Under the pieces are notes generated by a model. The model was not told the DNA's origin. It worked only from the letters and a program-made list of their open reading frames with translations, and ran no database searches. Position numbers and translations under genes: made by a program. Positions 1,461-2,365 of a DNA stretch of 44,244 nt are shown piece by piece. Every line of letters starts with the position of its first letter. Position 1 is the stretch's first letter. The stretch covers positions 1 through 44,244 of the IMG/VR virus record IMGVR_UViG_2896595138_000007; one strand, given 5' to 3'. The DNA comes from a virus (lineage: Duplodnaviria; Heunggongvirae; Uroviricota; Caudoviricetes).

Positions 1461-2365
1461 CTACTTAATATCAGAGACAGAATATTGTTTATTGAGCGTA
1501 TGGGTGTGAGCACCAATAACGATGCTACTTCCGTGGCTATGTGCGCCAGAGATGACATTACCTACGGGATTTTCTGGATTAATCCGGTGTATATGCGAAC
1601 CAGGGCGAAACCGGTTATTAGCCTGATGTTGTATCAGTACATCATCAGCCTGATGTTCAGGGTTAATACAGACCTGCCCGGAACGTGAGCAATACGTCCG
1701 ATAATCGCCGCATCCAATATATTTAGTATCCGCATAACGGCAAACAGAATTACCCGGACAGTATGCATATGTGCCAAATACTGCCGACTGGCGGGATTGT
1801 GCGTATTCCCAGTTAATTGATTCTGTTTTTTTATTAAAGTTATCCCATGCCTGCTTCATCTGCCGGGCAACACTTTCAAACGGCACCTGACCACATCCGG
1901 CTCCCATTGCAGGGAATGCCACCGTTTTTATTTTCCTGTCTGTCGTTGCGTGTTTAATTGTGCTGAAAGATGGCAAGCAGAGCGGCCCAGGTTGCGTTAT
2001 ATACAGCGTCTGTTCCGTCAATTGTCAGCGGAACACGCATTGTTGGCGCATGTACCATGCCAGGGATGATGATTATGCCCCGTTTCAATAACAAATGCAG
2101 AACCTACAGGCTGCTCGCCGAGATATTCACGAAGAATATGATTCTGAACGCGGGACTGTAACTGAGTACCGAAGAATGCGGTAATGGCGACATCAACACC
2201 GCCATCCATCAGGCCGAAACTGTTTGCCGCACTTACCATGCAGTCAAATTCCCTGATTGTTTCAAATGGCTTTCCGACAATATTCACATTATCTGCATTT
2301 GCGAATACCCGCTTAAATGCTTCAGCCATTTCTGTTACTGGTGCAGAAAGAATGAGCGTAATCAT
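1461..2365 (-). CDS. Macro-domain (ADP-ribose binding/processing) protein with Cys-rich, HxH-containing C-terminal extension; apparent 1-nt frame break near 2020
   Basis: ORFs 2018..2365 and 1461..2021. First ORF has [34 protein letters not shown] (macro N-terminal motif); second has [18 protein letters not shown] (macro C-terminal motif). Start ATG overlaps the stf stop (ATGA). One extra base near 2020 would fuse the two frames. Confidence 0.6.

Follow-up and report, generated by a model that had tools for sequence, protein, structure and literature searches.

The window analysed here, the whole 44,244-nucleotide (nt) stretch of IMG/VR record IMGVR_UViG_2896595138_000007, contains a broken macro-domain gene between stf, a lambda-type side tail fibre gene, and tfa, which encodes the tail fibre assembly chaperone. 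We found that intact relatives of this gene form a phage protein family in which a macro domain, a four-cysteine module and fibre-type HxH repeats are combined in a single polypeptide and fixed in position between stf and tfa. The copy in the window is a genuine pseudogene, without function in this genome, and the element that carries it is a defective lambda-like prophage that is dead irrespective of the macro gene. The gene itself was known already, being annotated in RefSeq, in PHROGs and in the Gifsy-1 record; what is new is the combination of the three parts at this fixed position. The literature on macro domains with tail fibres, on Gifsy-1 and on SEN4/5 yielded no published description of the gene. 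For the intact family we tentatively propose a late cytoplasmic enzyme, acting on an ADP-ribose derivative, that would blunt host immunity from within a fibre-coupled module with a fibre-type tail. We regard this as a serious possibility and stop short of calling it probable.

All coordinates refer to the window, and stf, the macro pseudogene and tfa all lie on its minus strand. Along that strand the tail genes run from two stf open reading frames (ORFs; 5257..3206 and 3213..2362, the gene spanning 2362..5257), through ORFs 2365..2018 (115 amino acids, aa) and 2021..1461 (186 aa), to tfa at 1452..868. The C-terminal stf ORF matches Pfam Collar (E value 1.5e-12) and Phage_fiber (3.8e-8), and the intact stf orthologue of E. 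coli 06-00048 (L001) encodes 979 aa. The tfa gene matches Pfam Caudo_TAP (2.1e-43), its ATG at 1452 having been placed by homology to lambda Tfa. As the sequence-only reading had claimed, the ATG of the macro gene overlaps the stf stop codon (ATGA, 2365-2362), an arrangement read as translational coupling, and a GAGG Shine-Dalgarno lies 5 nt before this ATG, inside the 3' end of stf (2371..2374). At the far end, the sequence at 1453..1463 comprises the macro stop codon TAG (1463-1461) and a GAGGTG Shine-Dalgarno for tfa. In lambda, stf and tfa overlap by their stop and start codons (GCATAATGGCA), and relative to lambda the window carries an exact insertion at that junction, in agreement with the earlier statement that a gene lies here where lambda has none. 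The GAGG that is used for tfa in lambda is used for the macro gene here, and the module imports its own GAGGTG for tfa, whose DNA is 94.5% identical to that of lambda tfa. In a closely related prophage, stf abuts tfa and the macro gene is absent. The macro gene is therefore well supported as an accessory module, consisting of one ORF plus the Shine-Dalgarno of the next gene, that was inserted exactly at the lambda-type stf/tfa junction. Since the module sits exactly at this junction, it would be transcribed and translated together with the late tail-fibre genes. A promoter and terminator scan of positions 400-3400 gave no promoter-like site upstream of the macro gene, with counts not above those of shuffled controls.

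We called frameshifts against an intact 903-bp orthologue that encodes a 300-aa protein (WP_000631342.1). The window differs from this gene at four places: an extra base at 2058, an extra base at 1956/57, and the substitutions A59V (base 2190) and V149A (base 1918). The first 1-bp insertion (CCCTGGC[A]TGGTA on the gene strand) is not part of a homopolymer and puts the codons from 103 onwards out of frame, and the second (AAT[T]AAACAC on the gene strand, 1956..1957) shifts it again. The pseudogene is divided into piece 1 (codons 1-102, 2059..2365), piece 2 (codons ~103-136, 1958..2057) and piece 3a (codons 137-196, 1776..1955), followed by the Cys module (codons 197-241, 1641..1775) and the variable HxH tail (1464..1640). 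Because of the two insertions, codons 103-136 fall in the third frame only; they are absent from both ORFs and became readable by three-frame translation and alignment to the intact gene. The sequence-only reading had described a gene of roughly 300 aa, which is correct in that an intact 300-aa orthologue exists, but the window holds no single ORF of that length and its frame is broken twice. It had also placed the frame break at 2015-2030, a segment that is only the overlap of the two ORFs.

Resequencing, which had been advised to settle the frame, proved unnecessary. The window is 100% identical to CP026845.1 (GCA_002950375.1), and the Logan assembly of SRR3090005 (L172) is identical to it over 961-5262, all four macro differences included, except at homopolymer 3236. 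The fact that an independent assembly reproduces both insertions indicates that the frameshifts are real. Sequencing error was ruled out as their origin by this recurrence and by their position outside homopolymers; a point in favour of artefact, the 13 single-base deletions in G/C homopolymers elsewhere in the window, concerns a different class of change from the macro insertions. Programmed frameshifting was likewise ruled out, the two +1 insertions being 101 nt apart and all orthologues being in frame. Both substitutions fall at conserved sites: valine was found at position 59 in 0 of 159 relatives, and alanine at position 149 in 1 of 80. With two real frameshifts and two conserved-site substitutions, inside a prophage disabled by insertion sequences (IS), the macro copy is a pseudogene. 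For this genome the finding is of little consequence, since it concerns a pseudogene in a dead prophage, and what follows deals with the family.

The macro domain had been called from two motifs, and both are present, the first in ORF 2365..2018 and the second in ORF 2021..1461. Pfam Macro (PF01661, gathering cut-off 22 bits) matched both halves above threshold, piece 1 with 30.3 bits (4.5e-7, profile positions 1-52) and piece 3a with 24.7 bits (2.4e-5, positions 88-118), the middle of the profile being found in neither. The same family is precomputed for all listed relatives. Pfam Macro_2 (PF14519) reached 22.9 bits on the window fragment against a cut-off of 27 bits; roughly half of the intact relatives have a precomputed match to it. 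Structure prediction agreed with the profile search. An AlphaFold2 (AF2) model of a 97%-identical orthologue, calculated from a 128-sequence alignment, gave a predicted local distance difference test score (pLDDT) above 95 for residues 1-200 and a three-layer alpha/beta/alpha macro fold over the core; it replaced an earlier run on 16 close sequences, which had given a pLDDT of 52. The top structural match was yeast Ymx7 (YMR087W, 1njr), an ADP-ribose-1''-monophosphatase (Appr-1''-pase) of the Macro_2 clade (Foldseek E value 1.2e-10), and the profile of 128 relatives aligned to the same protein over 181 positions with an E value of 2.6e-20. Ymx7 is thus closest to the phage core by both profile and fold, although identity is only about 21%, and Ymx7 is a eukaryotic cytoplasmic protein without the Cys/HxH extension or a phage context. 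The assignment of residues 1-196 as a macro domain of the Ymx7/Macro_2 type is well supported.

Piece 1 holds Asp41, Asn48 and the loop D54-G-G-V-D58, together with A59V; piece 3a includes the C-terminal helices of the Ymx7-type core and, as second phosphate loop, G154-A-G-C-G158, together with V149A. Asp41, Asn48, D54-G-G-V-D58 and the loop G154-x-G-x-G158 are kept in the family, and A59V alters the loop in the window copy. N48, D54, G55, G56, D58, G154 and G158 are each at least 90% conserved across 128 sequences, which include bacterial homologues at 35-50% identity. By alignment to Ymx7 and TTHA0132, the core carries predicted ADP-ribose-binding loops and a putative MacroD-like catalytic-type pair, Asn48 and Asp58, with Asp41 as a candidate adenine contact. 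In part these predicted roles are modelled on those of the MacroD enzymes.

Elsewhere the core occurs as a stand-alone domain of about 200 aa, with 2,886 representatives at E<1e-3, eukaryotic fusions included, and the stand-alone homologues end at about residue 196. At about 50% identity it is present in filamentous cyanobacteria, Chloroflexi and Planctomycetes, and stand-alone structural relatives occur in jumbo phages and giant viruses. A GTDB scan and a Pfam scan of 133 neighbours revealed no recurrent partner beside the bacterial core homologues, the most frequent family accounting for 6 of the 133. Inspection by eye of the eukaryote-like proteins P0136, P0146, P0160 and P0218 showed a Ymx7-like core joined to putative WD40 repeats, to a putative RRM, or to putative rhodanese plus dual-specificity phosphatase domains. 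These fusions suggest a conserved cellular role for the Ymx7-like macro clade.

Beyond the core, residues 197-300 form an extension composed of a four-Cys module (197-241; CX5C-X16-CX6C, HQxDD) and a tail (242-300). In the window the module reads YCPx4C...x16...CSRSGQVC...HQxDD, with conserved cysteines at 202, 208, 225 and 232. The C-terminal third of this allele contains five cysteines, of which these four are conserved in the family, and its tail has three HxH motifs (SHIH; AHSH, within GAHSH; and AHTH, within IGAHTH), which align to the last three repeats of Stf. Across the family the tail varies in length and usually has two to four HxH motifs. The hhalign comparison of the tail with the last three Stf repeats gave a probability of 94% (E value 1.2e-7, 30 columns, 47% identity), so that the earlier description of a Cys-rich third with a fibre-tip-like HxH end was borne out. 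The tail and stf also share 15-22-nt DNA repeats of families D4 and D13, and have the repeat GGTGCxCAxAC in common at the DNA level. The likeness to the iron-binding HxH repeats of lambda Stf and T4 gp37 extends to the spacing of the final three Stf repeats, but the macro tail has three repeats only, and no collar, shaft or tip domain.

Other searches with the extension gave little. The C-terminal module had no match in a PDB sequence search, and in Pfam only an insignificant one to Phage_fiber (PF03335, on the tail; E value 1.2, 9.9 bits against a cut-off of 20). A tblastn search of 50,697 phage records with the C-terminal 104 aa met macro genes only and no tail fibre, which indicates that beyond the HxH block the extension is no recognisable fibre remnant. 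Searching a word index with the last 120 aa was uninformative, since it returned four fragments and missed the known family. In the AF2 monomer model pLDDT was 24-77 over the C-terminal 100 residues and below 50 for residues 253-300. Two loci hold the same position without a full tail, L086 with no extension and L081 with the Cys module and no HxH motif; the HxH tail is dispensable for the stf-tfa position. Izhakiella australiensis (L085, L093-L095) has three macro-gene copies in one genome, and the copy at L085/L093, which adjoins a Tfa-like ORF, has a different, non-alignable Cys/His-rich extension (CGC, CDCGCG, several HxH/HHH). It seems that a metal-binding tail, and not the exact tail sequence, is the conserved property.

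The family is widespread. When 5,426 complete E. coli genomes were compared, at least 127 matched the region over its entire length, and in these the gene is annotated as one 300-aa 'macro domain-containing protein', WP_000631342.1. A protein search gave 1,712 matches, of 289-300 aa in E. coli and its relatives and of 269-294 aa in Salmonella, in clusters of hundreds, with further members in Erwinia and Citrobacter; source records call them 'macro domain-containing protein' or 'phage tail protein'. The family corresponds to PHROG 2613, listed there as 'unknown function'. Phage records with a member include those of Chuche and of SEN4/5, which are P2-like myoviruses, and of the lambdoid Gifsy-1 (STM2588.1n), and in these the gene always lies between the fibre and fibre-assembly genes. 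Of 80 viral loci, 78 had an intact macro ORF, with a length of 200 aa or more. Among the 78 viral-contig loci, the upstream ORF ended 4 nt into the macro start in all 71 that could be tested, and an ORF of about 190 aa began between -28 and +24 nt from the macro stop in 72. Every upstream ORF ends like lambda Stf and every downstream ORF begins like lambda Tfa. The question raised by the sequence-only reading, whether homologues are always fibre-adjacent, can thus be answered in the affirmative for 71 of 71 testable loci, all translationally coupled between a lambda-type stf and tfa. It is well supported that, in phages of Escherichia, Salmonella, Erwinia, Citrobacter and Izhakiella, both lambdoid and P2-like, the module travels with the stf-tfa host-range cassette. 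P0125, the nearest relative without a tail, belongs to another phage, in which its neighbours, ahead of the terminase, are genes for ParB and a methyltransferase. Since P0125 sits elsewhere in its phage, the core is mobile phage cargo and not a part of the fibre.

Protein identity across genera is 62-97%, and the ratio of nonsynonymous to synonymous substitution rates (dN/dS, Nei-Gojobori) was calculated for each region. For the macro core (residues 1-196) it was 0.08-0.11 in the more divergent pairs and up to 0.34 in very close pairs; for the Cys module (residues 197-241) it was 0.06-0.44; and for the HxH tail (residues 242-300) it was 0.27-0.86. These values mark a functional family, in which constraint is lowest on the tail.

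From the conservation of the catalytic-type residues and the kinship with Appr-1''-pases we infer that the core hydrolyses or dephosphorylates an ADP-ribose derivative. The enzyme would act in the cytoplasm late in infection, its candidate substrates being ADP-ribose-1''-phosphate (ADPR-1''P), an ADP-ribosylated macromolecule, or an ADP-ribose (ADPR) signal made by TIR proteins. The outcome would be a blunting of host immunity based on nicotinamide adenine dinucleotide (NAD+) or ADP-ribose, for which late structural proteins are a frequent trigger. If gp37 and Stf are a guide, the HxH tail would probably form a short metal-bound trimer, possibly folded by the neighbouring Tfa. An anti-defence role is plausible in view of two preprints. 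The phage macro phosphatase Adpp, of the NARP1-AP pathway, converts ADPR-1''P made by aRES back to ADPR (Osterman et al.; 10.64898/2026.01.28.702374), and in Pseudomonas phages the tips of side tail fibres and their chaperones set sensitivity to type II Thoeris (10.64898/2026.06.04.730250). Adpp, like the core described here, is a phage-encoded stand-alone macro enzyme related to the yeast Appr-1''-pases, and its counter-defence activity against NAD+ depletion has been demonstrated; it differs in that the Adps and Namat neighbours of NARP1 were not encountered at the phage macro loci. DarG and ThsA of type II Thoeris resemble the family in their macro fold and in an ADP-ribose chemistry that operates where phage and host meet. 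The PADLOC model for DarG gave an E value of 0.007 with no passing stretch, and no DarT neighbour was found. For ThsA, neither the Macro-TM arrangement nor a ThsB partner was found, and its macro domain matched only weakly in fold.

Several observations weigh against the proposed counter-defence enzyme. The literature holds no activity or phenotype for any member of the family. To our knowledge, expression from a late operon is unusual for counter-defence genes. Phosphatase activity on ADPR-1''P alone would not rebuild NAD+. None of the NARP1 partner genes was seen among the window ORFs scanned, and the neighbours at every testable locus are stf and tfa. The bacterial homologues have no conserved conflict-system neighbour, and similarity to Poa1p, ThsA and DarG is weak. 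Given the low confidence of the C-terminal model, trimerisation and metal binding can only be conjectured. Finally, a purely soluble enzyme fails to account for the strict linkage to stf and tfa and for the fibre-like tail, features that suggest a trimer formed with the help of Tfa and perhaps associated with the fibre. An elaboration of the proposed enzyme would place an antidote beside its trigger: trimerised by Tfa and made together with the fibre tip, it would destroy or sequester His-ADPR, gcADPR or ADPR-1''P in situ. This version, which draws on the Pseudomonas N4-like phages in which a fibre tip and chaperone pair sets type II Thoeris sensitivity, strikes us as a long shot.

If instead the protein were a fibre- or virion-associated module, the Tfa-folded HxH tail would attach a macro-domain trimer to or beside the side tail fibre, where it might act at the surface, on ribose-phosphate or an O-acetylated glycan, or serve as an accessory adhesin like T2-type gp38. 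The invariant coupled position between fibre and chaperone genes, in phages of two tail morphotypes, would be expected of such a module, and so would a tail that is homologous to the last Stf HxH repeats, has DNA repeats in common with stf, and varies in length and sequence as a fibre tip does. Some sources, as noted, call members phage tail proteins. Iyer et al. (2022; PMC9503650) noted a macro domain in only about 1% of siphoviruses and argued for possible packaging of those phage macro proteins whose genes lie among the genes for morphogenesis. However, lambda Stf and Tfa work without a macro protein, and the flanking stf end and tfa are 88-95% identical to those of lambda, which argues against co-adaptation with the macro gene. 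The strong conservation of the core, with a catalytic-type Asn/Asp pair as in cytoplasmic bacterial and yeast enzymes, is the opposite of what an adhesin would show; known macro substrates are intracellular, and fibres stay outside the cell. A tail-attachment domain is absent, and the literature contained no virion proteomics data. With the T2/T6 gp38 adhesins and the Tfa/gp38 chaperones the family shares the order of a fibre gene followed by a small accessory gene, with late co-expression, but there is no similarity in sequence or fold, the macro core is under strong purifying selection and no hypervariable receptor binder, only the short tail varies, and a separate Tfa is present. The sequence-only reading had offered a fibre-associated module as its alternative. 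The tail homology to Stf repeats speaks for it, and the purifying selection on the core and the loci L086 and L081, which keep the position without the extension or without HxH motifs, speak against it; on balance we consider it unlikely.

A role in the lysogen has less to recommend it. The protein might modulate ADP-ribosylation in the host, protect the lysogen or contribute to Salmonella virulence, and the gene is indeed widespread in prophages of pathogens and lies at a cargo-rich prophage end (a retron RT-TIR gene after tfa here, SLATT plus reverse transcriptase (RT) in the related prophage L088, PagK-like and gogB genes in Gifsy-1). A gene of this kind lying upstream of tfa inside the late operon, and not after tfa, overlapping the stf stop by 4 nt with no promoter-like site found, and present in the isolated phages Chuche and SEN4/5, makes us doubt this strongly. 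We see equally little prospect for a housekeeping clean-up enzyme, one that would clear ADP-ribose-1''-phosphate or O-acetyl-ADP-ribose, the products of host RNA 2'-phosphotransferase and sirtuins, with no link to immunity. The closest characterised relative is an Appr-1''-pase, a like role has been proposed for Ymx7 and Poa1p, and the genes around the bacterial homologues are ordinary ones, without a conflict partner that is conserved; yet only about 2% of complete E. coli genomes carry the gene, most stf-tfa cassettes that are otherwise alike lack it, and the phage-specific tail and fixed position would be left unexplained. That the family has no function at all, the ORFs being unrelated remnants or a selfish passenger between conserved recombination arms, is highly improbable. 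The window copy is broken, and the conserved flanks (the Stf end and the Tfa N-terminus) could promote transfer by recombination. But a single intact 300-aa gene, present in more than 100 genomes, is colinear with the two ORFs, which disposes of the suggestion that they are unrelated; besides the intact ORFs of the viral loci, the matches listed for 127 E. coli genomes carry annotations as intact genes, and dN/dS is about 0.1. Absence of function is largely refuted for the family and true only of the copy in the window.

Macro domains are the commonest viral domains that process ADP-ribose, and their roles against immunity based on NAD+ and ADP-ribose are only now emerging. The family described here is abundant, with clusters of hundreds in E. 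coli and Salmonella, Gifsy-1 included; it is strongly selected, invariant within a host-range cassette and equipped with a fibre-derived tail. If its members counter immunity triggered by late proteins, or ride on the fibre, they would link host-range modules with immune evasion, and the antidote version, if true, would represent a new class of counter-defence physically coupled to its structural trigger. The family is testable in the tractable phages Chuche, SEN4/5 and Gifsy-1.

The remainder of the prophage shows why it is dead. An IS4-family transposase gene (6868-8094, minus strand; DDE_Tnp_1 6.3e-32, Nterm_IS4) lies inside the tail-tip gene J, which is left in pieces at 10817..8277, 7066..6533 and 6485..5982. 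Since this element cuts J, the prophage is unable to make functional tails. An IS3-family element occupies 27963-29119 (minus strand) in the lysis and late-regulatory region, with an HTH_Tnp_1 ORF at 29119..28817 and an rve integrase-core ORF at 28781..27963. The stf gene is frameshifted into ORFs of 683 and 283 aa (window 3206-3236), reminiscent of lambda PaPa, and lacks two bases relative to L001, one in a C/G homopolymer at 3235/36 and the other at 3224. The gap at 3235/36 is probably an assembly error in CP026845.1, since the base is present in the independent Logan assembly; stf may nevertheless be genuinely broken, since the gap at 3224 is common to both assemblies. A prophage of E. coli 23CRST042 (L088) is 98% identical to the window, which relative to it lacks single bases at 13 sites, all in runs of G or C (6572, 11576, 12281, 15700, 17075, 17407, 20216, 25086, 25523, 26020, 26330, 27570 and 33003); these deletions split the tape-measure, terminase and other genes. 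They look like homopolymer under-calling in the assembly, the run at 3236 being the one homopolymer that was compared with the independent assembly.

Downstream of tfa, a 140-aa TIR ORF (window 1-423, plus strand) encodes the C-terminus of an anti-phage protein, the RT-TIR of a type XII retron. It matches positions 334-464 of the 464 in NCBIfam NF042941 (5e-55) and the PADLOC model RT-TIR_XII (3.9e-41), and its frame continues without a stop for 330 codons or more beyond window base 1 on the upstream side (L171 5366-6348), with a YADD reverse-transcriptase motif. We rejected a functional link between the macro gene and this neighbouring TIR gene, because the TIR ORF is the end of the retron RT-TIR gene and is not conserved with the macro gene. 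In L088 the position of RT-TIR is taken by SLATT and RT, and with different defence genes at one place the site downstream of tfa looks like a hotspot for defence cargo. Behind the stf-macro-tfa cassette of E. coli 06-00048 comes a gene annotated as a 'recombinase family protein' (L001 4790-5380), which could be a Pin/Gin-like invertase.

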